The notes beneath the pieces are model-generated. The model made no database searches and was not told where the DNA came from. It was given only the letters and a program-made list of their open reading frames with translations. From NCBI GenBank assembly GCA_023381555.1, contig JAMCRV010000083.1, forward strand, positions 1 to 51,791: 51,791 nt of DNA, written 5' to 3'. A program made the translations under genes and the position numbers. The DNA comes from Chloroflexota bacterium. Its GTDB lineage: Bacteria > Chloroflexota > UBA4733. Below, piece after piece: positions 1-48,122 of the stretch. Numbering within the stretch: position 1 is the stretch's first letter; each line of letters starts with the position of its first letter.

Positions 1-181
1 AGGGACGATTGTCAAGAACGTGCTGCCCATTCTCCTTGCGAGACACGAGACAGCCACGTTCGCGTGCCTCGCGAATGATACGCTCGGCAGCCGCGATAGC
101 TTCTCGGGCCTCCTCTGAATCTGTCGTGTTCCACTCCACCACCTGGTGGCCGAAGCGGTTGGCGATGATGATTCTGTGCAC
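1..181 (-). CDS. Small hypothetical protein, runs off the window edge (not in the ORF track)
   Basis: GTG at 181-179 preceded by AAAGGAG. The frame is open to base 1: MHRIIIANRFGHQVVEWNTTDSEEAREAIAAAERIIREARERGCLVSRKENGQHVLDNRP... Confidence 0.6.
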   Translation of the reverse strand, partial: MHRIIIANRFGHQVVEWNTTDSEEAREAIAAAERIIREARERGCLVSRKENGQHVLDNRP

Positions 182-415
182 CAAGAAACTCCTTTCAGCC
201 TTACTGAGGCAGTCTGGCGTCGGAACGGTTCAAGTCGAACAGTCCCGATCGGCTGAAACTGTGGTGCCTCTAGCATAAATCACGCCGGCCTGAAATGCAA
301 GTCGATCAACGAGTATAGCGGTCACTCGGTTACGTGATCCAGCGAGTTTCTCTGCTACTATTGCAACCGTGAGGAATTGCGGGGGCTCGCGCAGCCCAAC
401 GTGAGGAGGTGTCAG

Positions 416-946
416 ATGGTCACTCGCCAAGAGACGCAACTGCACCCATCTGCTTCCGCGGGCCTCGCTGCAAAGAGCGTGCTCGATGTACTCGACGCAC
501 GTGGAGTCACTCACCTCATCTGGCTTCCTGACAGTGAGTCTGCTGCGCTCTTTGTGGAAGTACAAACAGCTGGACGACCTACTCTCATACAAGTATGTCG
601 AGAGGGAGAAGCGTTTGGTGTGGCGGCTGGGCTCATTGCAGGGGGCAAGAAGCCGGTTGTTCTGATCCAAAGTACAGGTTTGTTCGAGTCGGGTGATTCC
701 TTGCGAGGTCTCGCTCTCTGGCTGCGGTTGCCGCTGCCTCTCCTCGTTGGATATCGTGGGTGGGATGCGTCGGGTCAGTCACGCGATAGCGCGGCCTGGT
801 TTCTCGAACCTGTGCTGACGGCGTGGAAGATTCCGTACCGGCTTGTTACCGGTGAAGAAGACCTAGATGCGCTGGACCAGGTAATGAGGGAGGCAAGTGC
901 CCAACACTGCACCTTAGCAGCCTTGATCACAACAGAATGGGTCTAG
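416..946 (+). CDS. TPP-dependent decarboxylase alpha subunit (sulfopyruvate/phosphonopyruvate decarboxylase ComD-like, N-terminal PYR domain only)
   Basis: ATG at 416 after GAGGAGGT. Motifs GVTHLIWLPDS, CREGEAFGVAAG, VLIQSTGLFESGDSL, LLVGYRG. Confidence 0.8.
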   Translation: MVTRQETQLHPSASAGLAAKSVLDVLDARGVTHLIWLPDSESAALFVEVQTAGRPTLIQVCREGEAFGVAAGLIAGGKKPVVLIQSTGLFESGDSLRGLALWLRLPLPLLVGYRGWDASGQSRDSAAWFLEPVLTAWKIPYRLVTGEEDLDALDQVMREASAQHCTLAALITTEWV

Positions 947-1035
947 CAAGGACCGCGGGCTGCCATCGCAAGTAGAGAGTCCAGTTCATCCGTCAGCGTT
1001 TTTGGGTGACTATAATCGTAGTGCTCCGTCGTGTA

Positions 1036-1072
1036 GGCGGGGGATGCTGCCGGGCAGCACCCCCCCCCCGCC
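1036..1072. terminator. GC-rich hairpin between convergent genes
   Basis: GGCGGGGG-A-TGCTGC / CGG loop / GCAGCA-C10-GCC. Confidence 0.5.
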
Positions 1073-1094
1073 ATTTTCGAGGTGAGTCTCGTCC

Positions 1095-3230
1095 TCACTC
1101 CTGTGTAAACGCGTTGGTAAAGTTCGTGGTGGGCAGTAGGCTCTGGTTGTGCACCCAATTCGGCTGGCTGGGGTCGTACTGGTTCAGGAAGGGGCTGCCT
1201 ACCGCCTCCTGGGCGAGGTCCGCTGGGAGGTTCTGCCCGGTGATGATCGCCTTGAGGTAGTCGGCGAGCAGGATGCCCTGCGTGCAGTTGCAGGTCGCAT
1301 CGTACATCATGATTCCCCGCTGCCAGCGCAGATAGATGAAATTGTTGTTGTGCGGATCGACCATGGGCTGGCTGGTCGGCACCCCCCACATCTCCAGGTC
1401 GATGCCCGGCAGGAGGCCAGCATCGCCGCCGTTGGGGAAGGCGGTCTGCGCCGAGACGGTATTGCTGAAGGTGGCATAGAAGTTGACGGGAGCGCCGTTG
1501 AAGCTGTTGGGGGCATTCTGCTGCACCCAGGCGAGGACGGCGGGCTGGTTGGTGGGTGCAGGAGCAGTCGCCACGAGGCTCGCATTGACGCCAGGGAAAG
1601 TGGAGAAGTTGAAGCTCGTGTAGTTGAGCAAGCCTGGATCGAGCAGGTTGAGCAAGCGGGCCTGACCACCGTGACTCAACTGGACGATGCGCCGCTGGAA
1701 GAACTGGACCGTGTAGCCCTGGAAGGTGAAGGTGCGACTGGTGGGGTAGCCGAACGTCGTGACGCCGCCGCGGCGCCGGAAGTAGTTCCAGATGGTGTTG
1801 TTGTCGATACGGTAGCCCGTCTGCGGAAAGTAGCGCGGGCCGAGCGGTACTAGGCCGATATTCACGGTTGGATTCTGGCCTGGTGTAAGCTCCAGTGCGC
1901 TCTCACCGGAGAAATTCGGTCCGGTCGTTACTACGGGGCGACCGGGTCGCGAGGCAGTGGCGACGACGGTGTAGAGCTGGCCGCTTGTGACATTAGAGAG
2001 TGTGATCGAGTAGTTGCCGTTGGCATCGGCTGTTGTGGTGCCGGCAGTGGGGGTGCCGGAGCAACTACTGCAGACGACGCTGACGCCCGCTCCTGCGGCT
2101 GCCCCCTCATTGGGATCACGGATGTAATTGCCATTCACGTCGTACCAGAGCGACCCGCTAATCGTGACACTGCCGGAGGTCGTTGGCGGCGTCATGGTGC
2201 CAATCGCTGTCAGATCGCCCGTATAACTCGTGATGCCTTGGCCACCGGTGTAGAGGGTCTGCGGATTATTGTTGTCCATTCCTACGGGCGCGTTCGGGTA
2301 GTTTCCGATAAGGGTGAAGGTGTTGCCGCCATTGGTGCTGCGGTAGAGACCGCCGCTGCCGCTGACCATGATCAGGTTGGCATTGGTCGGGCTCACGGCG
2401 ATGCTGGTCACAGTGCTACTGATATTGAGATTCGACCAGTTACCACCGGCGTTGGTCGTCTGGTAGAGGCTGGTCGTCGTGGGGCTGGTACCGACCGCGG
2501 CGTAGAACGTGCTGTTGGAGCCGGGCGTCACTGCCAGGCCAAAGACGCCGGTGCCACTAGGAAGGCCGGTGTTCATCTGCGTCCAGGTGTTACCGCCGTC
2601 AGTGCTCTTCCAGATACCGCCGTTGGTATTCGGGTTGGTGCCGGCATAGATAACCGAGGGATTCGTAGGATCGAGCACCAACGCCTGCACGTTGTTTGTG
2701 CCCATACCACTGAGCTGCGTGAAGGCCGTGCCGTTTGTGGACTTATACACCCCCATGTTGGTTCCAACATAGACGTTGTTGGCGTTGGTTTGGTCGATGG
2801 CCAGCGCCTGTACGCTGGCACTGCCGAGCCCACTTCCGGCGGCCGACCAGGAGCCACCACCATTGGTGCTGACGTAGAGCTGGCCCTGATTGGTAGAGAA
2901 GTTATAGCCACCGACATAGACTGTCTGCGGATTGGAGACGGAGACGGCCAGCGCGAAAACGCTCATCAGCGACGGTAGACCGCTGTTCATCTGCGTCCAG
3001 ATCGTGCCCTGATTTGTCGTCTTGTACACGTAGGGATTGCTCTGGCTGTTATTGCCGGCAGCGTAGACCGCATTATCGCCGGAAAGGTCGACAGCGATCT
3101 GGCTGAAGGTCTGGTTGGCCAGCGCGGTACTAAAGGCGTTCGGAGCAGCCATAGCCGGACTGGTTAGCGTAACAAATGGTATGAGGATGATGGCGGCCAT
3201 GAGGCCGAACCTTCGAAACATTCGTTGCAC
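1095..3230 (-). CDS. Secreted Asp-box/BNR beta-propeller protein with SdrD-B-like Ig domain and Chloroflexota-type C-terminal cell-surface domain
   Basis: Signal peptide ending SPAMA-A. Six (S/T)(T)NxG..W/F Asp-box-like repeats, GSLWYDVNGNYIRDPNEG, and RYFPQTGYRID...YFRRRGGVTTFGYPTS. RBS GAGGAGG before GTG. Confidence 0.75.
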   Translation of the reverse strand: MQRMFRRFGLMAAIILIPFVTLTSPAMAAPNAFSTALANQTFSQIAVDLSGDNAVYAAGNNSQSNPYVYKTTNQGTIWTQMNSGLPSLMSVFALAVSVSNPQTVYVGGYNFSTNQGQLYVSTNGGGSWSAAGSGLGSASVQALAIDQTNANNVYVGTNMGVYKSTNGTAFTQLSGMGTNNVQALVLDPTNPSVIYAGTNPNTNGGIWKSTDGGNTWTQMNTGLPSGTGVFGLAVTPGSNSTFYAAVGTSPTTTSLYQTTNAGGNWSNLNISSTVTSIAVSPTNANLIMVSGSGGLYRSTNGGNTFTLIGNYPNAPVGMDNNNPQTLYTGGQGITSYTGDLTAIGTMTPPTTSGSVTISGSLWYDVNGNYIRDPNEGAAAGAGVSVVCSSCSGTPTAGTTTADANGNYSITLSNVTSGQLYTVVATASRPGRPVVTTGPNFSGESALELTPGQNPTVNIGLVPLGPRYFPQTGYRIDNNTIWNYFRRRGGVTTFGYPTSRTFTFQGYTVQFFQRRIVQLSHGGQARLLNLLDPGLLNYTSFNFSTFPGVNASLVATAPAPTNQPAVLAWVQQNAPNSFNGAPVNFYATFSNTVSAQTAFPNGGDAGLLPGIDLEMWGVPTSQPMVDPHNNNFIYLRWQRGIMMYDATCNCTQGILLADYLKAIITGQNLPADLAQEAVGSPFLNQYDPSQPNWVHNQSLLPTTNFTNAFTQE

Positions 3231-3584
3231 GAATACTTTCCTCCTCTAGCTGCACTACCGTGGAACCGTTACCTGCTGTGTTCCACATGGTGGCAGCAGA
3301 CCCGCTGCCATTTGAGGCGTCTCATCCCTTCTAACGATGGGGCAAGCGAAACGGTACGGTAGCACAGGTTGTGCTTGAAAACGCGGACTGCGGCACGAGG
3401 TCGTTGGTCTACCACATCTCGCAGCTGAGGATCTTCTGATTTGCTCTTGTCAGGCGTGGACGGTAGAGAAGAGAGGGCGAAGTATGTGCACCGCTCAAGC
3501 GGATGACCGCTCATCCTGCCGTCGTCGAACACAGGCGGCCTGGCTGCACAGCTGCCTACGTCCCGCAGCAGTAGCCGTACGACT

Positions 3585-4739
3585 CTACCGGTGCTGGCTG
3601 GCGTGCGCCGGAGGCGCCAGTCGCTCGAGTTGGAATGGCGTGAGATCCCAGCTCGGAGACTGGTCACAGAGTATCTCTGTCATGAGCTGCCCAGTGAGCG
3701 GACCAAGAAGCACACCATTGCGGAAGTGCCCCGTTGCAACGATGAGGTTCTTGAATCCTGGTGCTCGCCCCATGGCCGGGTAACGGTCAGGCAGTGCCGG
3801 ACGCAGGCCCGCCCACATTTGGGCAACCGGAAGAGAGCCGAAGCGAGCCGAGATGTCCGTCGCTCCTGTCGCTAGCTGCAACAGAGCCGACAGTGTAGGT
3901 CGCCGGTCGAAGCCCGAGTGCTCTTCTGTGGAACCCACAATGATCTGGCCATCCGACTTAGGAGTGAGGTAGCATTCTCCCGACCACAGGATGTGCTGCG
4001 GCAGTGCTAGCAACCCGTCGAGGGCGACGATCTGCCCTTTGATTGGCTGCACCGGGAGATATAGACCTAGCATAGAGGCTAACCTGCCAGACCAGGCACC
4101 AGCGCTCAGTACGACAGTGCCAGCTGCGAAGGACCCCACTGCTGTGTTGACCTGCTCAATTCGATCTCCAGTGGCGACTACCTCAGTGACCGGTGTCCCC
4201 TCGAGCACGCGGGCACCGCGCTTCGACGCTGCTTCAGCAAGTGCCCGCACGAGCCTAGGGCTGCGCACCTGCGCCTCATCGGGCAAGTGTAAGGCCCCAG
4301 CGAGACGCCAGCTTGCTGCGCCCTTGAGGAGCGGCTCTACCTCGGCAACCTGAGGAGCGTCCAGCCACTCAGCACGTAACCCCCGGGTCTCTTGCCACTT
4401 TTGGCGCCCCCGCAGGTCGACGGCTTCTCGATCTTCCAGAGCCAGGCGCAACACTCCGGGTACGCGATATTCTACGTCGACGCCGATTTCAGAGCGCAGA
4501 GTCTCCGCGAGCTGGGCGTGAACTGCCCGGGCAGCGAGGGAAAACTCGAAGAGCTCATCGGGCTGGTGGGCCTCGACTTGGGAAGCGAGCATTCCGGCCG
4601 CCGCACCCGATGCGCCAGCGGCGATTATCTCTGCCTCCAGGAGAGTGACGCTCAAGCCGGCTCGTGCGCAGTAGTACGCAGTCGAGCAGCCGATGATGCC
4701 ACCGCCGATGATCAGCACGTCACTCGTATGCGATACCAT
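3585..4739 (-). CDS. thiO: Glycine oxidase ThiO
   Basis: DVLIIGGGIIG, GASGAAAGML, PIKGQ, WAGLRP, ATGHFRNGVLLGP. Directly downstream of thiG. Confidence 0.92.
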   Translation of the reverse strand: MVSHTSDVLIIGGGIIGCSTAYYCARAGLSVTLLEAEIIAAGASGAAAGMLASQVEAHQPDELFEFSLAARAVHAQLAETLRSEIGVDVEYRVPGVLRLALEDREAVDLRGRQKWQETRGLRAEWLDAPQVAEVEPLLKGAASWRLAGALHLPDEAQVRSPRLVRALAEAASKRGARVLEGTPVTEVVATGDRIEQVNTAVGSFAAGTVVLSAGAWSGRLASMLGLYLPVQPIKGQIVALDGLLALPQHILWSGECYLTPKSDGQIIVGSTEEHSGFDRRPTLSALLQLATGATDISARFGSLPVAQMWAGLRPALPDRYPAMGRAPGFKNLIVATGHFRNGVLLGPLTGQLMTEILCDQSPSWDLTPFQLERLAPPAHASQHR

Positions 4740-4741
4740 CG

Positions 4742-5800
4742 CTAGCTCCTTCCCGAAGAAATGGCGGCCTGATCGCGGCTCTGGAGTAGTGGAGACACCA
4801 CGCCATCCAGTGGGCTCGACGGCACGGCATGATCGAGGCGTGGCACCCGACCAGCGAGGAAGGCGAGCCGGCCTGCTTCCACGGCATAGCGCATCGCCAG
4901 GGCCATGCGCTCGGGATCACGGGCGCGCGAGATGGCTGTGTTGATAAGGCATGCTGCGGCACCCTGCTCCATCGCAATGGTGGCGTCAGAGGGAGTGCCA
5001 ATACCGGCGTCAACAACCACCGGACACTTCACTCGCTCAACGATGCGCCGGATGCTGCCAGCGTCCTCGACACCCCGTCCGGACCCGATCATGGCAGCCA
5101 TTGGCATCACGGCAGCCGCTCCGACATCTTCGAGACGTAGGGCTGTGACGAGGTCGAGACTCGTATACGGCAGAACAACGAAACCTTCCCTAACGAGGAT
5201 CTGGCAAGCTTCAACAGTGCCCGTTGGATCGGGCCAGAGCGAGCGCTCATCTCCGATGACCTCCAGCTTTATCCAGTTCGTCCCAGTGGCTTCTCTTGCT
5301 AGTTGGGCCATAAACACGGCCTGCCGGACTGTTGTGGCTCCGGCAGTGTTAGGAAGAAGGGAGTAGTGCTGCAGATCGAGCTCATCAAGCAGCCCACCGC
5401 TGGTGGTCTGTCCATCCAACCCAAGGGCCCGAATCGACACTGTGACGAGCTGTGTACCGGAGAGAATGAGGCTGTGACGGAGGATCTCCGGGGAGGGGAA
5501 GCGACCGGTGCCGAGAAAGATCCGGGAAGAGAACTCTCGGTCGGCGATACGTAAAGGATCTAGCACAGGCCCTTCTTGGGAGCCGCCGGAGACGGCGCGC
5601 ACAATGTCGACAGTATCGCCATCGGTCAGTGCTATGTCATCCCACCGCGCGCGCGTGATCACGGAGCCATTCACGGCGAGCGCTACCCTCGTGCTCTGCA
5701 GGCCTAGGTGTTCCAAGAGGCGGTCCAGGGTCGACTGCGGTGGCAACGTCACTGGCTGACGGTTGACAAGGACTATCACCGAATCACGTGATTCTGACAT
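4742..5800 (-). CDS. thiG: ThiS-ThiG fusion (sulfur carrier plus thiazole synthase)
   Basis: ATG at 5800 after GGGAGGAG. A 73-aa ThiS domain ends VDIVRAVSGG and continues in frame into ThiG (FSSRIFLGTG, LLPNTAG, WIKLEVIGD, PVVVDAGIG). Confidence 0.9.
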   Translation of the reverse strand: MSESRDSVIVLVNRQPVTLPPQSTLDRLLEHLGLQSTRVALAVNGSVITRARWDDIALTDGDTVDIVRAVSGGSQEGPVLDPLRIADREFSSRIFLGTGRFPSPEILRHSLILSGTQLVTVSIRALGLDGQTTSGGLLDELDLQHYSLLPNTAGATTVRQAVFMAQLAREATGTNWIKLEVIGDERSLWPDPTGTVEACQILVREGFVVLPYTSLDLVTALRLEDVGAAAVMPMAAMIGSGRGVEDAGSIRRIVERVKCPVVVDAGIGTPSDATIAMEQGAAACLINTAISRARDPERMALAMRYAVEAGRLAFLAGRVPRLDHAVPSSPLDGVVSPLLQSRDQAAISSGRS

Positions 5801-5859
5801 CTGCACATCTCCTCCCGATGCACGTGGGGCAAGAGACACGGTGAGGAGATCGGCACCTC

Positions 5860-5949
5860 ATCACGCATCCCTACGCCGGTATTACCCAGATCAAGTGAAA
5901 GGGGTTAGGCGGAACCGCCTTCTCAGCCGACAGGCACCCCCTGCGTGAT
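5860..5949 (-). ncRNA. TPP (thi-box) riboswitch
   Basis: Minus strand reads GGGGTGCC...CTGAGAA...CCC...TGATCTGGGTAATACCGGCGTAGGGA. P1 is formed by TCACGCA/TGCGTGA. Lies upstream of thiS-thiG-thiO. Confidence 0.95.
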
Positions 5950-6031
5950 CTTCTATTTGCTTCGATTATAGCGAATCGGAGCCCGGCTGGCTTGCCCACA
6001 TCTCTGCTATGCTCGTGCAGCACAAGAGCCT

Positions 6032-7132
6032 ATGGCGAGTCTGAGGAAGGATGAAGGTGTGGAACAACTTGGGTTGGGGCTCATCGGTACTGGCCGCATT
6101 GCTCACAGTCACCTAAGGGCGCTCGCAGACTACCTGCCAGCGCGAGTCAACAGTGTATTCGACGTGCTGCCGGATAGAGCCGAAGCGTTTGCACAACAGT
6201 TCAGCATTCCGTCGGTCAGCCCCAGTCTGGAGGATCTGCTCGCCCGCACCGACATTGATGCGGTGATCGTGGCTACCCCTCCGTTCGCTCATGCCCAGCC
6301 CACCATCGCTGCTCTCGAAGCCGGGAAGCACGTGCTCTGTGAGAAGCCGTTTTCTCTCAGCGTGCCGGAGGCTGAGCAGATGGTTGCTACCGCTGAGCGA
6401 ACCGGTAGATTCCTCGCTGTCTGCTCTGCTCGATACCGGCACGCCGATGGAGCGCGGCGTGCTCACGAGCTCGTCGCGGCCGGTGAGCTGGGAACGATCT
6501 ATCACGCTCGGTCGAGCGCATTCCGGCTACGCGGACGGCCGGGCATTGACATGTTCACCGACGCGACCTGGTTCATCGACAAGACCCGCGCTGGTGGGGG
6601 AGCACTCATTGACATTGGGGTCTACCAGATCGATCTGTTGCTCTGGATGCTGGGAAACCCTCACGTTACCAGTGTACTCGCGACGGGCTTTCAAGGCATT
6701 GGTGATCCTCCTCCTGCGGGGGTGGTTCAGACGGTTGAGGACCATGCCGTGGTGATGATACGCTGTGACAACGGCGCCAGCGCCGTTCTCGAGATCGCAT
6801 GGTCTTCGAACATTACGGATAATAACGCTTTTCTCGTCTTCGGTACGGAGGCAGGGCTGCGCCTCAATCCCTTGCGGAAGGTGACGGTAAGTCCGGACCG
6901 GAAGCCCGTAGAGGAACGTCTGTTGCCCGAGGAGGGTCCTGAATCCAGAGGATTCGGTCGCGTCACGACAGGCTTCGTGGACGACATATTGGCAGGCCGC
7001 CAGCCCTGGACATCTGGTCGGGATGCCCTCGAAGTGACACGTGTAATCGACGCTGCCTATCGTTCCATCGCCACTGGACGCGCCGTTGAGATCGCAAGCA
7101 TTCCAAGGTTAGCGGAGTCCCTCGAGCGCTAG
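6032..7132 (+). CDS. Gfo/Idh/MocA family NAD(P)-dependent oxidoreductase
   Basis: GLIGTGRIA, GKHVLCEKP, GGGALIDIGVYQID. Alternative start GTG at 6059. Confidence 0.9.
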   Translation: MASLRKDEGVEQLGLGLIGTGRIAHSHLRALADYLPARVNSVFDVLPDRAEAFAQQFSIPSVSPSLEDLLARTDIDAVIVATPPFAHAQPTIAALEAGKHVLCEKPFSLSVPEAEQMVATAERTGRFLAVCSARYRHADGARRAHELVAAGELGTIYHARSSAFRLRGRPGIDMFTDATWFIDKTRAGGGALIDIGVYQIDLLLWMLGNPHVTSVLATGFQGIGDPPPAGVVQTVEDHAVVMIRCDNGASAVLEIAWSSNITDNNAFLVFGTEAGLRLNPLRKVTVSPDRKPVEERLLPEEGPESRGFGRVTTGFVDDILAGRQPWTSGRDALEVTRVIDAAYRSIATGRAVEIASIPRLAESLER

Positions 7133-7218
7133 AGCTTTGCATGCGATGCGCACTCCGTCTGCATCGAGGCACAGAGGGGCGGCGTTGCTGACCCGGCTGC
7201 GCTATTCAGAGACGAGAA

Positions 7219-7248
7219 GAGCAGGGAGGCGAGGCTGCCTCCCTGCTC
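7219..7248. terminator. Perfect 12-bp hairpin between convergent oxidoreductase genes
   Basis: GAGCAGGGAGGC (7219-7230) / GAGGCT loop / GCCTCCCTGCTC (7237-7248). Confidence 0.65.
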
Positions 7249-7287
7249 CGGGCACCGGCGGCACGCCGGAGATCCGACGGCTCGTAT

Positions 7288-8259
7288 TTACATCATTGGA
7301 ACCATGACCGGCTGCCCCGTGGTCGCCGACTGGTTGGCAGCCAGCGTCACCAAGAGCGTCCGCGCAGCATCTTCATACGTGCAACGGACGAGGGACCTGT
7401 CTCCACTTTCCACGGCCCTGATGAAAGCCTGATCTTCGAGAAAATAGGGGTTTTCAGCCGAGCGTAGCTCAGTTGTCTTTCCGGGCTCAAGGATGCGCAG
7501 GTTGTTGCTGTGCTCTTCGATGATCAGGCCGGGGCACACGATGTGCAGGCCAACGGTATAGCCCATGCCCGCAAGGCAGCTCGTGGAGATGTTCCCAACG
7601 ACCCCTGAAGCGAATTCGACGTTCACGGTTCCCGTGTCCCAGACCGTGAAGTTCTCCACGTTGCCCATGGATCGCACGGCATAGCTCGCACTGACACGGG
7701 TGATCTCGCCGACGAGGTACCGAGCCAGGTCCACGATGTGAGTCGTCTGCTCGACGAACTGCCCACCCGAGCCATCGAGGCGGCGCCACCACGGCACTTG
7801 CGGGAAACCCCCGTGCCAGTACCCGTGGACAATGCCCACGGCCTTTCCTTCGAGGAGCCCACGGGCGCGGTCGGTCAGGGGGCTGTACCGCCAATGGTAC
7901 CCAGCTGCGGCGATTACTCCCGTCTGCCGGATCGCTGCAAGCACTTCTCTGGCCTTGGACTCGGTGATCGCCACGGGCTTCTCGACGAAGAGGGCGATGC
8001 CCTTCTTCGCTGCGAGAATTTCCTGGTCATCGTGAGCAAATGGAGGCAGGCATACGTAGAGTGCCTGTACCCCGCTGCGTTCGATGAGCTCCTGGTGATC
8101 GCCGTAGACGTGAGAGCCAAAGCGCTTCGCGACAGCCTCGGCGCGATCTCGAGCGATGTCGAAGACTGCGGTCACTCGCGCGTTGGCGATTCTCTCCAGA
8201 CCGTTCAGGTGTTGGTTCGCGATGCCTCCGGTCCCGATAAATCCCACCTCGACTGGCAT
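7288..8259 (-). CDS. Gfo/Idh/MocA family oxidoreductase
   Basis: MPVEVGFIGTGGIA, LFVEKP, SGGQFVEQTTHIVD. Confidence 0.9.
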   Translation of the reverse strand: MPVEVGFIGTGGIANQHLNGLERIANARVTAVFDIARDRAEAVAKRFGSHVYGDHQELIERSGVQALYVCLPPFAHDDQEILAAKKGIALFVEKPVAITESKAREVLAAIRQTGVIAAAGYHWRYSPLTDRARGLLEGKAVGIVHGYWHGGFPQVPWWRRLDGSGGQFVEQTTHIVDLARYLVGEITRVSASYAVRSMGNVENFTVWDTGTVNVEFASGVVGNISTSCLAGMGYTVGLHIVCPGLIIEEHSNNLRILEPGKTTELRSAENPYFLEDQAFIRAVESGDRSLVRCTYEDAARTLLVTLAANQSATTGQPVMVPMM

Positions 8260-8367
8260 AAATTCCTCTGGCCCTTCCACTTGAACGTTACGACAAGGCA
8301 GAGCGATTGTACTCTAGTGGCATCCGGAGACGCGACCACTGGTCTACTGCAATGCTGGGTCTCTTTC

Positions 8368-9837
8368 TTACCCTCTCTGTATCTGTCTGCCAGGAAGCCC
8401 AATTGCTCCAGAGGATTGCTCAAGAGCGTGGCCGATCCGGAGCAGCTCTGCCTCTCCCCAAGCACGTCCCATGAGCTGAAGGCCGACGGGTAGGTGGTCG
8501 ACTAGGGCGCACGGAACTACCAGACCTGGCAGCCCAGCCAGATTCAGTGGGATGGTACAGACGTCTGAGAAGTACATCGCCACGGGGTCACCGGACTTCT
8601 CGCCGAGGCGGAACGCTGTCGTGGGTGCGGTGGGTGCGGCCAGCACGTCGACGGTTTGCAAGGCGTCCTCATAGTCCTTGCGGATCAAGGTGCGCACTTT
8701 CTGGGCCTGGAGATAGTAGGCGTCGTAGTAGCCGGCGCTGAGGGCGTAGGTTCCTAACATGATGCGCCGCTTCACTTCCGAGCCGAAGCCCTGGCCGCGT
8801 GTGGCAGCGTACACATCCCACATGGCATCCCCCTCAGCGGCCCGGTAGCCATATTTGACCCCATCGAAGCGAGCAAGGTTAGCGCTGGCCTCTGCAGGCG
8901 CAATGATGTAGTAGGCTGGGAGCGCGTAGGGTGCATACGGTAACGAGACATCGTGGAGCGTCGCGCCCAACCGCTCGAGCTCACATAGGGCATCCTGAAT
9001 GGCTGCTTGGACGCCAGGTTCCATACCTGAGACGAAGAACTCCTTGGGAATGCCAACACGGATACCGTCGAGATGCGTTGATTTGAGAGCCCCTACGTAG
9101 TCGGGGACCTCCCTGCTGGACGACGTCGAGTCCCGGGGATCGCCCCCTGCGATCACGCTCATCACCCGCGCGGCATCCGCACAGGTGCGAGTGAGGGGGC
9201 CCACCTGATCCAGTGACGATGCAAAGGCTATGAGACCGAAGCGAGAGACACGACCGTAGGTGGGCTTCATTCCTACAACACCGCAGAATGACGCCGGCTG
9301 GCGGATTGAGCCACCGGTGTCGGAGCCGAGCGTGAATACCGCTTCGCCAGCTGCCACGGCCGCGGCGGAGCCCCCACTCGATCCACCCGGCACACGGGTA
9401 TGGTCCCAAGGGTTATGGACAGGCTTGAATGCGGAGTTCTCATTCGAGGATCCCATCGCAAACTCGTCACAGTTGAGCTTGCCCAGCAGGACGGCACCTG
9501 CCCGCTCAAGACGCTCGGCTACCGTGCTATTGAAGGGGGGCACGTAGTTCATGAGCATCTTTGAACCGGCAGTAGTCGTGATTCCTTTAGTGATGAGTAC
9601 ATCCTTGAGTGCCATAGGGATCCCGAGCACTGGGGTTCGCTCTCCCGCGACCAGGCGAGCGTCAGCAGCACGTGCCGCCGCTAGAGCCTGGTCACGAATG
9701 ATGGTCAGAAAGGCGCCGATTGTGGAATCAAGCTCCGCAATGCATTCCAGTGCCTGGGTCGTGAGCTCTAACGAGGACGTCTTGCCCGTGTCGAGCATCT
9801 GACGGCACTCTGTCAGGGTGGGTAGCGGGGTGGCCAT
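8368..9837 (-). CDS. gatA: Asp/Glu-tRNA amidotransferase subunit A
   Basis: Amidase signature [46 protein letters not shown]. Start trimmed to ATG 9837, just after gatC. Confidence 0.97.
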
Positions 9838-43280: not shown

Positions 43281-43418
43281 AGGGAAAGGGTAGCACAGCC
43301 TGGCTGCTCTTCGTTGCCACGAGACCTAGCGCTGATCGCTTGGGTCTCGGAGCGTCACGAGCATACGGAGATGTGGTCGACAGCAGCGGCCGGACGCCGT
43401 TATACTGCGTGCTGTTCT

Positions 43419-43491
<73 letters not shown>

Positions 43492-43530
43492 CCCTGTTTC
43501 CCTCTGGGAGACCCAATAATTTTCGCTTGG

Positions 43531-43602
43531 GTCAAGCCGTTTTTGGGGCGTGTCCCCCTAATCATCCCCCTAATTGATCGCTATTGCCAAAAACGGCTTG
43601 AC
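43531..43602. repeat. Perfect 16-bp inverted repeat enclosing a 10-bp direct repeat
   Basis: GTCAAGCCGTTTTTGG (43531-43546) / CCAAAAACGGCTTGAC (43587-43602). TCCCCCTAAT at 43553 and 43565. Confidence 0.8.
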
Positions 43603-43901
43603 AATGAGCACTGAGAGGGTGGGCCAGGGGTACCGAGCACCGGAACGACGCTTTGGCATGCGGTTCCCGCTATTGAATATCGGGGACTGCAGGACGTGAT
43701 TGTCGGAGTCGGGCAGCAAGGCGGCATAGCTGAAAAGCAAGGCGTTGGCATCAGCGCCATGCAGTCTTGACGAGCCGAGGCGGCAAAGCACTGTGCTGCA
43801 CCTTCTCGCCTCGCCCAGTCTTCGCCCCTTGACGGTGATTCCAATGCCGACCAGGTGCTCGCGACGGTAAAGTGTAAGGTGGTTACCCGGGAGGGCATTA
43901 C

Positions 43902-44066
43902 ATGTGCGGTCGTTACGGCATCACGGACGTGCAGCATAATGGCGAGCGCTTTCAACTCTGCCTGGACCTCGACCAGCCCGATTTCCAGCCGCGCTACAAC
44001 GCTGCGCCTACTCATGGGCTGCCGGTCATCATTGAGCGTACGGGGAGAGCAACGCGGAGCCTATGA
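43902..44066 (+). pseudogene. SRAP (YedK/HMCES) N-terminal remnant
   Basis: GGAGGG RBS then MCGRYGIT...FQPRYNAAPTHGLPVII...*. 54 aa, lost before the WGL motif. Confidence 0.85.
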
Positions 44067-44335
44067 TTGTGTAGCTGGCGTCCCCATTTGTCCGGCTGCA
44101 GAGGATCTGGGACGGGACCACGTGGCTCGTCCGAGTGCGGCTCGTGGCATCAACCTGGCCGGTGTATTACCATAGCGACCACCCGTGTGCAGTCGGCGGG
44201 TCAACCCAGCCGGGGCTCAGAGAAGGAGGGGCAACCGACAACGCAAATATCAGTGGCCCGTTTACTTATCGGTGATCACGGTGCGATTCGTGATGGCGCA
44301 CATGGTTGCCGCGTCTGCCGGAAAGGAGCAAGAGA

Positions 44336-44998
44336 GTGAAAAAGTACATACTCTTCGATCATGATGGTGTTCTGGTGGATACCGAATTCTGGTATTACAA
44401 AGCTGGAGAGCGCGCCCTGGCGGACATTGGATTTACCTTGGATAGAGAACAATACCTCCGAGACATGACCCAGGGATTGGCCACCTGGGCCCAAGCCAGG
44501 GCGGCAGGCATTGACGAAGAGACCATCAGCAGGCAGCGTGAGGTTCGTAATGACTATTATCAGGAATATCTGAGAACAGAAGCCATTGAGATTGAAGGCG
44601 TCATTGAGACTCTTGCTGAACTGTCAAAATATGTCCGCATGGCCATCGTGACGACTGCAAAGCGTGTGGATTTTGAACTTATCCATGAAAAGCGCCAAGT
44701 TAGACAATTCATGGATTTCGTCCTTGTTCGCGAAGACTACAGGCTCGCCAAGCCGCACCCGGAACCATACCTGACCGGCTTAAAGCGCTTCGGAGCCACC
44801 AAAGATGAGGCACTGGTTGTAGAGGATTCATCCAGAGGGCTGAATTCAGCCGTGGCGGCCGGTATTGACTGTGTCATTGTCTATAACGAATTTACAAAAG
44901 GAAACGACTTTTCACAGGCTAGCTATCGAATCGAAACTCTGATTGAATTGAAGGATATCATCCTTAAATGTAACCTGAAGGAGCATTTACCAGTCTGA
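44336..44998 (+). CDS. HAD-family phosphatase (beta-PGM/CbbY-like)
   Basis: FDHDGVLVDT, IVTT, KPHPEPY, VVEDSSRG. AAAGGAG RBS. AT-rich relative to its flanks. Confidence 0.92.
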   Translation: MKKYILFDHDGVLVDTEFWYYKAGERALADIGFTLDREQYLRDMTQGLATWAQARAAGIDEETISRQREVRNDYYQEYLRTEAIEIEGVIETLAELSKYVRMAIVTTAKRVDFELIHEKRQVRQFMDFVLVREDYRLAKPHPEPYLTGLKRFGATKDEALVVEDSSRGLNSAVAAGIDCVIVYNEFTKGNDFSQASYRIETLIELKDIILKCNLKEHLPV

Positions 44999-45174
44999 AC
45001 GGGCAGGCCTACATCGTCGCGGCCGCCACCATCAGCGCCAACCGGATCACCACCACCATCGACCACGACGCCACCAACGGCGACGACCTCGCACTGCGCC
45101 AACGGATCCTCGACACGATCGACGACGTCAGCAACGCGCCAACTCAGTACGTGCAGATGTGCCTCGCTGCCTGA
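44995..45174 (+). pseudogene. Start-less 3' gene fragment of unknown family
   Basis: Strongly GC3-biased frame (LNGQAYIVAAATISANRITTTIDHDATNGDDLALRQRILDTIDDVSNAPTQYVQMCLAA*) with no start codon after the in-frame stop at 44971. Confidence 0.5.
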
Positions 45175-45214
45175 AGCGAATGTTACAACTTCGCGGCGCT
45201 ACCCACGCCCTGCA

Positions 45215-46498
45215 TCATGCAGGGACCGTTGCAACCACGGGTGGAACTGCTATGATAAGACTATGTCGACACGCAAGGCTGGCTGATCGCGGTGTGGGTG
45301 GATGCGGCGGATGTCCCGGAGTGGGACGGGGGCCGGGAGCCGGTCCGTCAGGCGCACCCGCGCCTGCGCCACCTCTGGGTGGACGCCGGCTTCGGGCCCA
45401 AGAGCGATACGCCTGCCCATCGCCCATCCGGGCGACTGCCCCATTGTTGACCTGCTCGCGAATGCCGCCGATGCCTGCCGAATAGAGCGTTACCCCTCTG
45501 GCCAGCAACTGCTCCTGCACCGCCGCCGCAATGTGCCGGAAGTACGCATCGTCGTAGAGCCAGGAATACCAGCGCGGCCTGCCGGCCGTGTAGAGCTGCT
45601 GCACCTGGGCCCAGCTTGCGTCGACCCGATCGAGCAGCGGGTCTGTCAACCCGAGGTGACGGAGCACCACGCCGCCCAGCCGCATGCGGCAGTCGAGCGG
45701 CGGATAGTCCGTGGCGTGGTGCTGGAACGGGCTCGCACTAGTCGCCAGGAGGCCGACGGCCAACGTCACGACGAAGGCCGGGCCACCGAGGAGGGTGCCG
45801 ACGACATCGCACACCACCTCTTCCATCTCGCGAAAGGCCTGAGCGCGCCATTCGAGCAGCGCCTGCGTCATGCTCTGGCGGTCGCTCGGATCGGCAGCGC
45901 TGTGGATAGCCTGTTCCTTTCCTTGGATCGCCGCGGCAATCGCGGCCTGCATCCGCTGGCCGAAGTCCGGGAACCAGAGCTGGAAGAGCACGTGCCCGAG
46001 TTCGTGGAAGGCGAGGGCAAGCTCCCCCGGATCATCGACCAACGATGCTGGCACAAAATACAGCGGGTGGCTGGCCGGCACGGCCGAGGCGGCGAACCAA
46101 TGGGGCTGATGGAGTGAGGCCACTGGATGCACGTCCGTGAGCCCGACGTCACGATGCAACGCCTCCAGCAGGTTGGAAAGGTACTGATCGTCGGGTGTGC
46201 TGGCGAGGTAGGTGGGCAATTGCTGGATCCGTAAGGCCTGCACCTGATGTGCAAGCGCTTGCATCGCCGAGAAGAGCTGCCGCCAGGTGTCGAGGGCGGG
46301 ATTGGCCGCGGCGTGATAGTGGGCGAGGCTCGTCTCGACCAGCGAAACCCCGCTCTGAAGGGCGGCAATCCCGCCGAGCTGCACACGGAGGCGTCCAGCG
46401 AGGTTGGGATGGGCGCGTGCCTGCAGGGTCGAGAACTCGTGCTGCAGATCGTCGAGGTGCTGCCGCAGCTCGGCGAGCTTGGCCGGGAACAGCACCAC
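45215..46498 (-). CDS. Uncharacterised HExxH (zincin-like) metallopeptidase; native 3' end replaced by antisense IS5 sequence below about 45394
   Basis: Helical N-terminus, LALAFHELGHVL, downstream EEVVCD, GGPAF, YPPLDCR. The final ~60 codons are the reverse strand of the IS5 fragment and flanking DNA. Confidence 0.7.
   Translation of the reverse strand: MVLFPAKLAELRQHLDDLQHEFSTLQARAHPNLAGRLRVQLGGIAALQSGVSLVETSLAHYHAAANPALDTWRQLFSAMQALAHQVQALRIQQLPTYLASTPDDQYLSNLLEALHRDVGLTDVHPVASLHQPHWFAASAVPASHPLYFVPASLVDDPGELALAFHELGHVLFQLWFPDFGQRMQAAIAAAIQGKEQAIHSAADPSDRQSMTQALLEWRAQAFREMEEVVCDVVGTLLGGPAFVVTLAVGLLATSASPFQHHATDYPPLDCRMRLGGVVLRHLGLTDPLLDRVDASWAQVQQLYTAGRPRWYSWLYDDAYFRHIAAAVQEQLLARGVTLYSAGIGGIREQVNNGAVARMGDGQAYRSWARSRRPPRGGAGAGAPDGPAPGPRPTPGHPPHPPTPRSASLACRHSLIIAVPPVVATVPA
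45265..45393 (+). pseudogene. IS5-family transposase internal fragment
   Basis: VDTQGWLIAVWVDAADVPEWDGG...HPRLRHLWVDAGF matches the VDT.G.L..V.V..A...D / PRL..LW.D.GY region of IS5 DDE transposases. Confidence 0.75.
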
Positions 46499-46501
46499 CC
46501 G

Positions 46502-46927
46502 TTACAAGCGATAGAGGCTGCGCACGTCCTCGGCAGCCTCCGCCTCGAGTAACGCTTGCAGACTGTCAAGTATTCGAAAGTCGTGGTCACGGATGGCCTG
46601 GCCACTGGCCAGTCGTTGCCGTAACCGCCGAAGCTCCGCTAGGCGATCCGGCACGTCGGCCGGGTTGACCTGGACAAACCGATCCGCCAGCCCAGCGAAC
46701 GCCAACTTCGTCGCTCCGCCCACCGTTACGGCGATCAGGTCATCGAGGAACGCGACCAGTGTCTCACGTTGCTGTGGCACGTCCTGAGCCTTGGCGTGCT
46801 GCTGGCCCGCTCGGCCCTGTACGTGCAGCTTGAGGACGAGTAGCGCGTTGCTGAGCCGGCTCAGGAGCTCCTGGTCGGATTGGTGCTTGTACGAGGTGTA
46901 CGCGAAGCCGTGCATGACCGCAGGCAC
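46502..46927 (-). CDS. Small all-helical hypothetical protein, translationally linked to the HExxH gene
   Basis: GGAG-N7-GTG at 46927 (alternative ATG 46915), amphipathic helices, stop 3 nt before the HExxH start. Confidence 0.65.
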   Translation of the reverse strand: MPAVMHGFAYTSYKHQSDQELLSRLSNALLVLKLHVQGRAGQQHAKAQDVPQQRETLVAFLDDLIAVTVGGATKLAFAGLADRFVQVNPADVPDRLAELRRLRQRLASGQAIRDHDFRILDSLQALLEAEAAEDVRSLYRL

Positions 46928-47238
46928 GATCAGACTCCGATCCTTGCAAGCCGGTGACTGACCGCTGTTTGCCCCTGGAGAACACGCTTGCCCAAAAGGA
47001 AGCAAGCAGCGACCAGGCACCGTCTACTGACCATGAGTGTAGCATAGGCCAAGCACGCCTGTTGCCGCCTGCGCCTCGGACCGGAGTCCGAGCACATCTG
47101 GGCCATCCACGCCTGGCGCGATGGCGGCAGCAGCACGATCGTTGCCGGCCAAGGAGCGTGGTTCCTGCCCCATTGGCCGCCGGCGACGTGCGCACCGTCT
47201 CGGCGCCGCCCGACCCTGCTGGCCGCCCACCGCGTGGT

Positions 47239-47628
47239 CTACCTCCGCTCGTCGCCGGCAGCAGACGGGCGGATGTTGCCGGCAGCGTAGAGCTGGCCGA
47301 GAAACCGGCTGGGTCGCGTCGCCAGGAGCCGCGTGTCGGCGAAGCCGGCGCCCCGGGCGAGCGGCCGCCAGGGCGCGAAGCTGCACGGGAAGGGTACCCA
47401 GCGGTTGCCCTGATCGGTGTCGTATTCCACCAACACCAACCGTCCGCCCGGTCGCAAGGCGGCGAAGATGGTTCGAAGGGCCGGACCCTTGTCCTTGAAG
47501 TGTAGGGCGTTGGCCAGCACGATGCCGTCGAGCGGCGGCAAGCCAAGCGGGTGGGCGAAATCAGCCAGGCAGTAATCCACGTCCATGTCGGGAAAGCAGC
47601 AGCGCAGCGCCTGCGCCTGCTGCCCCAT
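47239..47628 (-). pseudogene. Class I SAM-dependent methyltransferase lacking its N-terminal SAM-binding motif
   Basis: ADFAHPLGLPPLDGIVLANALHF, LRPGGRLVLVEYD present; no GxGxG motif I. The 5' end abuts the palindrome at 47628. Confidence 0.75.
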
Positions 47629-47680
47629 TGCTACCGTAGCAAACTTTCCGTGAATCGCGTACGATATGCTACCGTAGCAA
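47628..47680. promoter_or_regulatory. Two copies of the near-palindrome TGCTAC-C-GTAGCA(A)
   Basis: TGCTACCGTAGCAA at 47629-47642 and 47667-47680, 38 bp apart. Confidence 0.7.
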
Positions 47681-47724
47681 GCATCTTGGAGTGACCTGTC
47701 ATCGACCGCTTACCGATCGAGCCG

Positions 47725-48039
47725 TTGTTCGTCAATCGCGCGACCGAGATCGCGGCCCTTGACGACGTCCTCCGTCTGCTGCCGCGGGCGATTCGCCGGC
47801 ATACGGCACTGCTCGGCCTGCGCCGCATCGGCAAGACCCCCCTGCTGGACCAGGTTCGCCGCCGCCACCCGACCATCGCGATCGCCCGCCTCGATGTCGA
47901 CGCCATCGTTACCTCGCCTGAGCACTTCGCTCGGGCTGTCGTCTCGGAGACCCTCAGTGCCGTCCTCCGCGCGCGAGCAGCGCACGCCTATGTCGCCGAG
48001 ACGGACGACGGGCTGCGCGGGGCGGCAGCTAGACCATGA
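47725..48039 (+). pseudogene. Truncated archaeal-type AAA/STAND-like ATPase (N-terminal 104 aa)
   Basis: FVNRATEIAAL and Walker A variant GLRRIGKT; ends before Walker B. Confidence 0.75.
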
Positions 48040-48050
48040 GGAGCGCCGAC

Positions 48051-48122
48051 GTGGCAGAGCCCTACCCGGAGATCGAACCGTACGACCACATGGCGATGCT
48101 CACCGAAGGATTCTTGAATTAG
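48051..48122 (+). pseudogene. Proline iminopeptidase N-terminal stub
   Basis: GAGGAG RBS then VAEPYPEIEPYDH..ML, the characteristic S33 PIP N-terminus; stop after 23 codons. Confidence 0.6.

Follow-up and report, generated by a model that had tools for sequence, protein, structure and literature searches.

The HExxH protein and small helical partner encoded by a Chloroflexota contig: a probable stranded accessory half of an Argonaute defence system

Two adjacent genes, predicted to encode a small all-helical protein (gene 1) and a protein with an HExxH motif (gene 2), were examined in a Chloroflexota contig (JAMCRV010000083.1 in GenBank assembly GCA_023381555.1; positions 1 to 51,791, the whole of which is referred to here as the window). 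The pair was judged, with a probability of about 0.8, to be the accessory half, left stranded at this position, of an Argonaute defence system with four or five genes. The full system would consist of an optional XRE-type helix-turn-helix (HTH) protein, a Cas4-like PD-(D/E)XK iron-sulfur nuclease, a long prokaryotic Argonaute (pAgo), a helical protein of ~140 amino acids (aa) and an HExxH protein of ~380 aa. The pair in the window is a remnant of an Argonaute locus and not a complete system.

Both genes are on the minus strand. Gene 1 (coordinates 46502–46915; 137 aa and a stop codon) lies in an open reading frame (ORF) at 46502–47020, and its start was placed at the ATG at 46915 on the basis of nine homologues, an alternative GTG at 46927 giving 141 aa. 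Gene 2 starts with a GTG at 46498, which is 3 nucleotides (nt) past the stop codon of gene 1, and its ORF extends to 45215 (427 codons), with residues 1–368 (45395–46498) forming the part that is homologous to related proteins. The initial annotation had described an all-helical protein of about 141 aa tightly coupled, with a 3-nt gap, to the HExxH gene, and both the spacing and, depending on the start codon, the length (137–141 aa) were confirmed. Relative to locus L010, found in the genome bin of an uncultured Chloroflexi bacterium, neither gene has a frameshift, and the ratio of non-synonymous to synonymous substitution rates (dN/dS) was 0.22 (gene 1) and 0.24 (gene 2), at a synonymous divergence (dS) of 0.33–0.44. 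Judged by these values, the two ORFs are genuine genes and not chance reading frames, and have been under purifying selection in the past, but the ratios mostly reflect the time before the loss described below and cannot date it. Neither gene product matched an entry in Pfam, NCBIfam, PADLOC or the PDB. No named system had been recognised in the initial annotation, and PADLOC-DB 2.0 likewise gave no match for the two window proteins or for the partners at loci L002 and L014, while the neighbouring pAgo and nuclease were matched.

A search of 5.8 billion proteins (E <= 0.001) returned 37 HExxH proteins, namely the product of gene 2 itself, 34 sharing 37–52% identity and two sharing 28–29%, all of them metagenomic and without a Pfam domain. 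When 1.84 billion cluster representatives were searched with a profile, the family grew to at least 1053 clusters (50% identity) at E <= 1e-3, with 370 at E <= 1e-10, and nearly all of the best 150 listed matches were 360–390 aa long. No close-clade relative of the HExxH protein was found in viral contigs.

Twelve distinct homologous loci had enough flanking sequence for their contexts to be read locus by locus (L002, L005, L007, L010, L011, L013, L015, L014, L017, L019, L020 and L029; 22–85% identity), and in all twelve the pair was located beside genes for a long pAgo and a Cas4-like nuclease. The pAgo was identified using PADLOC, PDB or profile searches in ten of these loci, and by size and position only in L005 and L007. 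The Cas4-like PD-(D/E)XK gene is upstream of the pAgo gene, and its products in related loci matched PDDEXK_1 or Aga_Cas4-like_Nuc. The initial annotation had proposed a unit whose two genes should co-occur, and in each locus examined the HExxH gene was indeed immediately preceded by a homologous small helical gene, with gaps of 0–41 nt.

In the close clade of seven loci (L002, L005, L007, L010, L011, L013 and L015; 39–85% identity across the aligned parts), the small partner genes encode proteins of 143–151 aa and precede the HExxH gene. Transcribed convergently towards the pair are a gene for a protein of 785–815 aa and a PDDEXK_1 gene. The 3′ ends of the pair and of the 785–815 aa gene usually overlap, and otherwise abut. 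Overlaps of 55–88 nt between the HExxH and pAgo genes were seen in L002 (coordinates 9137 to 9191), L007 (9128 to 9215) and L010 (9134 to 9206), and the shared sequence seems to encode Ser-rich C-terminal tails of the HExxH proteins opposite Asp/Glu-rich tails of the pAgos, so that the two tails would constrain each other. No HTH gene was annotated at a conserved position near the locus in this clade.

The five distant loci (L014, L017, L019, L020 and L029; 22–28% identity) are arranged as a single co-directional operon with overlapping gene boundaries. The order in L014 is Cas4-like nuclease, pAgo, small protein, HExxH protein, and in L017 and L019 the same four-gene operon is headed by an HTH_3 gene (111–121 aa). 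L029 includes the same four genes, with a 149-aa ORF, which was not scanned for domains, in the front position; in L020 the pAgo gene is cut by the contig end and is followed by the small protein and HExxH genes. The four proteins diverge in step, each sharing ~25–28% identity between L002 and L014. The pair had been put forward initially as a free-standing two-gene system, which does not agree with the attachment of pAgo and nuclease genes in 12 of 12 loci, nor with the one operon seen in the distant branches.

The neighbouring pAgos matched the PADLOC pAgo/pAgo_II profiles with E-values of 2e-39 to 2e-52, and the neighbouring nuclease matched Aga_Cas4-like_Nuc at 5e-12. The large protein of the close clade was identified as a long pAgo by PADLOC (pAgo/pAgo_II, 2e-39) and by a match to VbAgo in the PDB (1e-33). 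Among PDB sequences, the L019 pAgo matched VbAgo (6e-174), the L017 pAgo matched the PliAgo group (1.5e-94) and the L029 pAgo matched MbpAgo (9WMD; 7e-97). Residues D563, E597, D631 and D764 are invariant in nine pair-associated pAgos and correspond to D550, E584, D617 and D756 of VbAgo. These proteins look catalytically competent, with an intact DEDD tetrad, and on sequence grounds are close relatives of PliAgo, MbpAgo and VbAgo, which represent the three lineages of DNA-guided and RNA-cleaving pAgos (D-R or gD-tR) that have been characterised.

The specificity of the link was also seen in 401 genomes of the phylum to which the window belongs. This pAgo clade was present in two of them (G040, which is the genome carrying L010, and G225), and the pair adjoins the pAgo gene in both. 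A further five genomes gave weak PIWI matches, probably to other pAgo types, and none of these has the pair.

Genes typical of defence regions, which the initial annotation had led us to expect, were present near the homologues, and include restriction-modification, DUF499/DUF1156, toxin-antitoxin, CHAT and E2/E1-like genes. A Prok-E2/ThiF ubiquitin-like pair is beside the Argonaute-plus-pair locus in L011 (coordinates 3344 to 5379), and a set of SNF2, DUF1156 and HEPN/DUF499 genes is near that in L019 (7219 to 14092). NERD and MmeI-like methyltransferase genes are found in L017 (12997 to 15149), and BrnT/CopG toxin-antitoxin genes and a resolvase gene in L013 (8367 to 9347).

Locus L010, whose HExxH protein shares 85% identity with that of the window, includes all four genes. 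The window DNA is ~88% identical to L010 from ~47049 down to 45395 and is unrelated to it on both sides. The breakpoint at 45395/45394 follows residue 368 of the gene 2 product, and the protein alignment diverges after W367-A368. As homologues are 379–404 aa long and the aligned residues here are 1–368, gene 2 has lost ~31 C-terminal codons. A foreign 3′ extension of the ORF (45215–45394, minus strand; 58 unrelated codons and a stop codon) takes the place of these codons and of the entire pAgo/Cas4-like operon beyond them. No pAgo or Cas4-like gene was detected using single-protein queries in the 1.64 Mb bin that includes the window (67% complete), and none was detected with a pAgo profile. 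By comparison with L010, a rearrangement at 45394/45395 is seen to have taken the pAgo and nuclease genes together with the last ~31 codons of the HExxH gene, leaving a ~1.65 kb cassette (45395–47049). The cassette includes a conserved non-coding stretch upstream of the pair (46916–47049, minus strand), the similarity to L010 starting at ~47049, some 130 nt upstream of gene 1; a scan for sigma-70 consensus promoters upstream of gene 1 found none on the minus strand. The earlier view of the pair as an essentially intact two-gene system cannot be upheld, as only half of the system is left, with the HExxH gene cut short. This copy probably no longer functions or is heading for loss.

A fragment resembling an internal 46-aa part of an IS5-family transposase (45259–45396, plus strand), with stop codons upstream, adjoins the breakpoint. 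It matched the NCBIfam model transpos_IS5_3 at E=0.02 (profile positions 134–180 of 258), had no match in Pfam and no second copy in the genome, and gave one match, unannotated, in a tblastn search of plasmids. The initial annotation had placed an IS5 junction here, with the last few codons of gene 2 replaced. The coordinate 45394 proved exact, but the loss is of ~31 codons, and the assignment to IS5, as judged from this match, is weak.

The motifs of gene 2 reported initially were all present, namely H165-E-L-G-H169, E226-E227-VVCD, GGPAF (residues 238–242) and YPPLDCR (residues 265–271; YPP..R in the earlier description), and all were invariant or near-invariant across 33 homologues. The homologous part, which is gluzincin-like, carries H165 and H169 of the HExxH motif, E227, C230 and D231, together with YPPLDCR. 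H165, E166 and H169 are invariant in alignments of both the close and the distant family, and E227 and D231 are likewise invariant in both alignments across the wide HExxH family. An AlphaFold2 model built from the 33-sequence alignment (predicted local distance difference test score, pLDDT, 94.7) begins with an antiparallel helical hairpin of ~115 residues (residues 3–117), in agreement with the ~110-aa helical N-terminal domain described earlier. This is followed by three short strands (126–148), the HExxH helix (157–174) and the helix carrying E227 (225–250). The absence of a signal peptide or transmembrane segment was also borne out, as no signal peptide was found in the sequence and the single hydrophobic stretch is the Glu helix, which is buried in the model.

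Gene 1 was modelled as five helices (AlphaFold2, pLDDT 80.6), and a Foldseek search of the PDB with this model gave no match below E=0.2. In an alignment of nine partners, its product shares 83% identity with the L010 partner and 26–57% with the eight others. Pairwise comparisons gave 41% identity with the L002 partner and 25% with the L014 partner (E-values 3e-28 and 5e-07, respectively).

The model of gene 2 has a zincin-type layout, in which a small sheet is followed by the HExxH helix and then by a conserved Glu on a later helix. The motifs and the model together suggest that the product is probably a zinc hydrolase of gluzincin-like type located in the cytosol, with peptidase activity as its most likely function. 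The initial proposal of a gluzincin-like protease thus stands as far as the HExxH motif, the downstream Glu and the zincin-like model are concerned, but a match to a characterised metallopeptidase was found neither in sequence nor in fold. When 16 close and 35 distant HExxH members and their partners were scanned against Pfam, NCBIfam and PADLOC, no family was found and the only matches were to coiled coils at chance level. One of the 51 HExxH members scanned, a distant one, gave a weak match to Peptidase_M78 (E=0.096). Membership of the M78 (ImmA/IrrE, PF06114) family was considered and rejected as unproven, as the hhalign comparison of the close and distant family alignments with an alignment of eight M78 sequences from related genomes covers only 18–19 columns with a probability of 46–52%.

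One HExxH family member, P0159 (609 aa), is fused to a CHAT (caspase-like protease) domain, and a gene for a 999-aa CHAT protein directly adjoins the pair in L015 (coordinates 101 to 3100); this fusion and this neighbour hint at a proteolytic context. On another contig of the window genome, a Peptidase_M78 domain is encoded within a 1167-aa open frame (G000:C86, coordinates 70897 to 71232), which is unusually large for the ImmA/IrrE type.

The Argonaute system is of a known kind. D-R pAgos have been described in operons of constant composition, encoding an HTH regulator (or sigma factor), a Cas4-related PD-(D/E)XK nuclease and the pAgo (Lisitskaya et al. 2022; PMC9360449). The close relatives of the pAgos found with the pair, which share the intact DEDD tetrad, are the PliAgo/RslAgo group (PMC9360449; PDB 7R8F-7R8K), MbpAgo (PMC13346755; 9WMD) and VbAgo (PMC10448046, PMC13219720; 9V65), and the published order of HTH, nuclease and pAgo agrees with that in L017 and L019 and, as far as nuclease and pAgo are concerned, with that in L029. 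However, the small helical and HExxH proteins are named in none of the texts and supplements searched. The clade nearest the window also differs from the published operons in the convergent placing of the pair and in having no annotated HTH gene at a conserved position, and the window itself is without pAgo and nuclease genes. The survey of Ryazansky et al. (2018), which was limited to genes sharing the strand of the pAgo gene, lists no peptidase. The MbpAgo paper mentions no operon, and the VbAgo structure paper mentions an operon for short pAgos only.

A Cas4-family iron-sulfur nuclease likewise precedes the long-A pAgo in the APACE systems, which consist of a long-A pAgo with ACE1 or ACE2 (Bobadilla Ugarte et al. 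2025; PMC12094033) and similarly provide accessory proteins for active pAgos otherwise seen as 'stand-alone'. The nucleases beside the pair are 319–360 aa long, near the ACE2 average of 313 aa. APACE1 differs in being a two-protein, DNA-targeting system, APACE2 is uncharacterised, and no protease-like or small helical partner is described in PMC12094033. In the short pAgo systems SPARTA and SPARSA and the long-B systems BPAN, BPAS and BPAM (PMC10620215, PMC13535254), Argonautes are also encoded together with nuclease or non-nuclease partners that extend their function; C-terminal auto-inhibition has been reported for SPARTA as well. However, the pAgos of these systems are catalytically dead and the partner is the killing effector, whereas the pAgo found with the pair retains the DEDD tetrad and the partner looks protease-like, a type of protein that the papers searched report for no pAgo system.

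The HExxH protein shares with the ImmA/IrrE proteins (Peptidase_M78, COG2856), which act with an XRE repressor, an HE[LI]GH motif, a downstream Glu in E-x-x-[AC]-[ND], a predicted cytosolic location and, in some operons, an HTH_3 gene, and the regulatory-protease logic of ImmA/IrrE would fit the pair. It is unlike them in having no Pfam or fold match, in its size (~380 aa, with the 115-residue hairpin) and in its obligate neighbour, which is a helical-bundle protein and not an HTH protein. Full-text searches for pAgo together with metalloprotease, HExxH or peptidase returned nothing relevant, and no paper naming either gene was found among those searched. What is new is at the level of the family, an unstudied protease-like arm of RNA-targeting Argonaute systems.

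If the pair belongs to the Argonaute system, the helical hairpin of the HExxH protein would probably pair with the helical-bundle partner, and the two would regulate or activate the Argonaute machine. In the version that we favour, though only tentatively, proteolysis by the HExxH protein controls a component of the system. The leading candidate for the substrate would be an acidic, auto-inhibitory C-terminal tail of the pAgo, which the HExxH protein would remove. This idea was prompted by VbAgo, whose acidic C-terminus (residues 764–782) is auto-inhibitory and fills the nucleic-acid channel, its deletion speeding RNA cleavage (PMC13219720), and by the pair-associated pAgos, whose C-terminal ends are strongly acidic in most cases. 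Other candidate substrates are the small partner, which would then act much like an inhibitor or antitoxin, and the XRE/HTH regulator, although the latter is lacking in the close clade, which counts against it. A broader proposal, which is rather doubtful, is that DNA-guided RNA-cutting Argonautes are not stand-alone slicers but part of a four-component machine with an unclassified gluzincin-like protease switch and its helical partner. The switch would trim the pAgo tail, or destroy the small partner or a repressor, once an invader is sensed.

Several points weigh against assigning the pair to an Argonaute system controlled by proteolysis. The 'protease' label rests on the motif and the predicted local architecture. 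The best Foldseek E-values for the full-length gene 2 model, which is dominated by long helices, were 0.6 in the PDB and 0.2 in BFVD, giving no link to a characterised peptidase, and profile searches of PDB sequences with the close and distant alignments returned coiled-coil noise only. The hhalign match to the M78 alignment involves the HExxH helix and turn alone. The pair in the close clade is transcribed convergently to the pAgo gene, and coupling in one operon is therefore not universal. In the VbAgo-like pAgos of L014 and L019 the tail is not markedly acidic, which weakens the tail-cleavage idea. A divergent HExxH subfamily was found in three small genomes of the phylum (1.5–2.0 Mb; G092, G146 and G005) with no detectable pAgo, indicating that the HExxH protein can exist outside Argonaute systems. 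Finally, with the bin 67% complete, the pAgo gene may be on an unbinned contig, and chimeric assembly could account for the junction at 45394.

The pAgo-less loci were not counted as pair loci. The divergent HExxH protein encoded in G092 (locus L030, coordinates 2857 to 9290) matched the distant profile at E ~1e-80, with related matches in G146 and G005. Its gene is downstream of a 168-aa ORF, and upstream of this ORF there are six tightly packed tandem ORFs, the first of 361 aa and five of 222–238 aa, which are paralogue-like and have no Pfam match. The product of the 168-aa ORF had no detectable homology to the usual partner (hhalign probability 4%).

These loci bear on an alternative in which the pair is an autonomous two-gene toxin-antitoxin or defence switch that tends to insert beside Argonaute loci, with the local copy still functional. 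An HExxH homologue following a small ORF in three genomes with no pAgo would fit such a module, as would the conserved upstream region of ~130 nt that the pair has of its own, its transcription separately from the pAgo in the close clade and dN/dS values of 0.22–0.24 with no frameshift. However, that small ORF is not detectably homologous to the partner, the dN/dS values largely reflect the time before the loss, and the local HExxH gene lacks ~31 conserved C-terminal codons. As pAgo and nuclease genes adjoin the pair in 12 of 12 loci, in one overlapping operon in the distant branches, and the four proteins diverge in step, autonomy of the pair is unlikely. A second possibility retains the Argonaute link but makes the HExxH protein an ImmA/IrrE-like derepressor, which would cleave an XRE-type repressor in response to an infection or DNA-damage signal and thereby induce the Argonaute operon, with the small protein as sensor or adaptor. 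The co-directional operons that start with an HTH_3/XRE gene (111–121 aa) and end with the HExxH gene are consistent with this, and HE[LI]GH followed by E-x-x-C-D-x-x-G/A-x-L-L-G-G-P resembles the M78 pattern of HExGH followed by E-x-x-A-N-x-F-A-x-x-L-L-x-P; the weak Peptidase_M78 match of one distant member (E=0.096) points the same way. Against this, the close clade, including L010, has no HTH gene annotated at a conserved position, indicating that the core partners are the small protein and the pAgo and not a regulator, and the hhalign match (46–52%) extends over only the 18–19 columns around HExxH. No fold match to IrrE/ImmA structures was found, and the HExxH motif and the Glu are ~58 residues apart, about double the distance in the M78 alignment, making derepression of this kind quite improbable.

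A different role for the HExxH protein was also considered, in which it is no peptidase. As a metal-dependent hydrolase or a purely structural component, it would act on nucleic acids or, together with the Cas4-like nuclease, help to make and load guides, with the small protein as scaffold. All other parts of the system handle nucleic acids, the likeness to known peptidases does not extend beyond the motif, and ACE1, which processes DNA guides and forms a heterodimer with its pAgo (PMC12094033), indicates that accessory proteins can serve guide biogenesis. However, the invariant HExxH and the Glu on a neighbouring helix after a small sheet are the classical arrangement of zincin peptidases, and this, together with the CHAT-fused family member and the CHAT neighbour of the L015 pair, makes a non-peptidase role improbable. 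It is very unlikely that the stranding is an artefact of chimeric metagenome assembly and that the organism really has the full locus. The window is a contig from a 67%-complete metagenome bin, and there are several abrupt junctions between gene fragments in the 8 kb around the pair, but the ORF reads on smoothly across the junction, both flanks of the cassette, and not just one, differ from L010, and the 1.64 Mb bin yielded no fragment of a pAgo or Cas4-like gene. The assignment of the pair to the accessory half of an Argonaute system, stranded in the window, was therefore preferred.

The region around the pair is rich in gene fragments. A tRNA-Lys (CTT) gene identified by ARAGORN (43418–43494, plus strand) is at the edge of this island, and near it (43500–48100) an N-terminal fragment of an SRAP gene (43902–44066), an intact HAD hydrolase gene of low GC content (44306–44998; 47–53%), an orphan C-terminal tail (45000–45176), a methyltransferase fragment (47239–47628, minus strand) and an AAA ATPase fragment (47725–48039) were found.

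The window copy is of less interest in itself, and shows that the Argonaute half can go while the pair persists. If the four-component arrangement proposed above is true, the stranded or pAgo-less copies in the window and in the three small Chloroflexota genomes would suggest that the protease module can also be reused outside Argonaute systems. The RNA-targeting pAgos (PliAgo, MbpAgo and VbAgo), which are under development as programmable tools for RNA, have been examined as single proteins. Two more proteins, one with the hallmarks of a zinc protease, are encoded in nearly all of their native loci. If the pair does control the Argonaute, a prokaryotic Argonaute system with a protease arm would be described for the first time and the auto-inhibitory C-terminus of VbAgo would have a natural explanation, and the way in which these enzymes are reconstituted and engineered would change.

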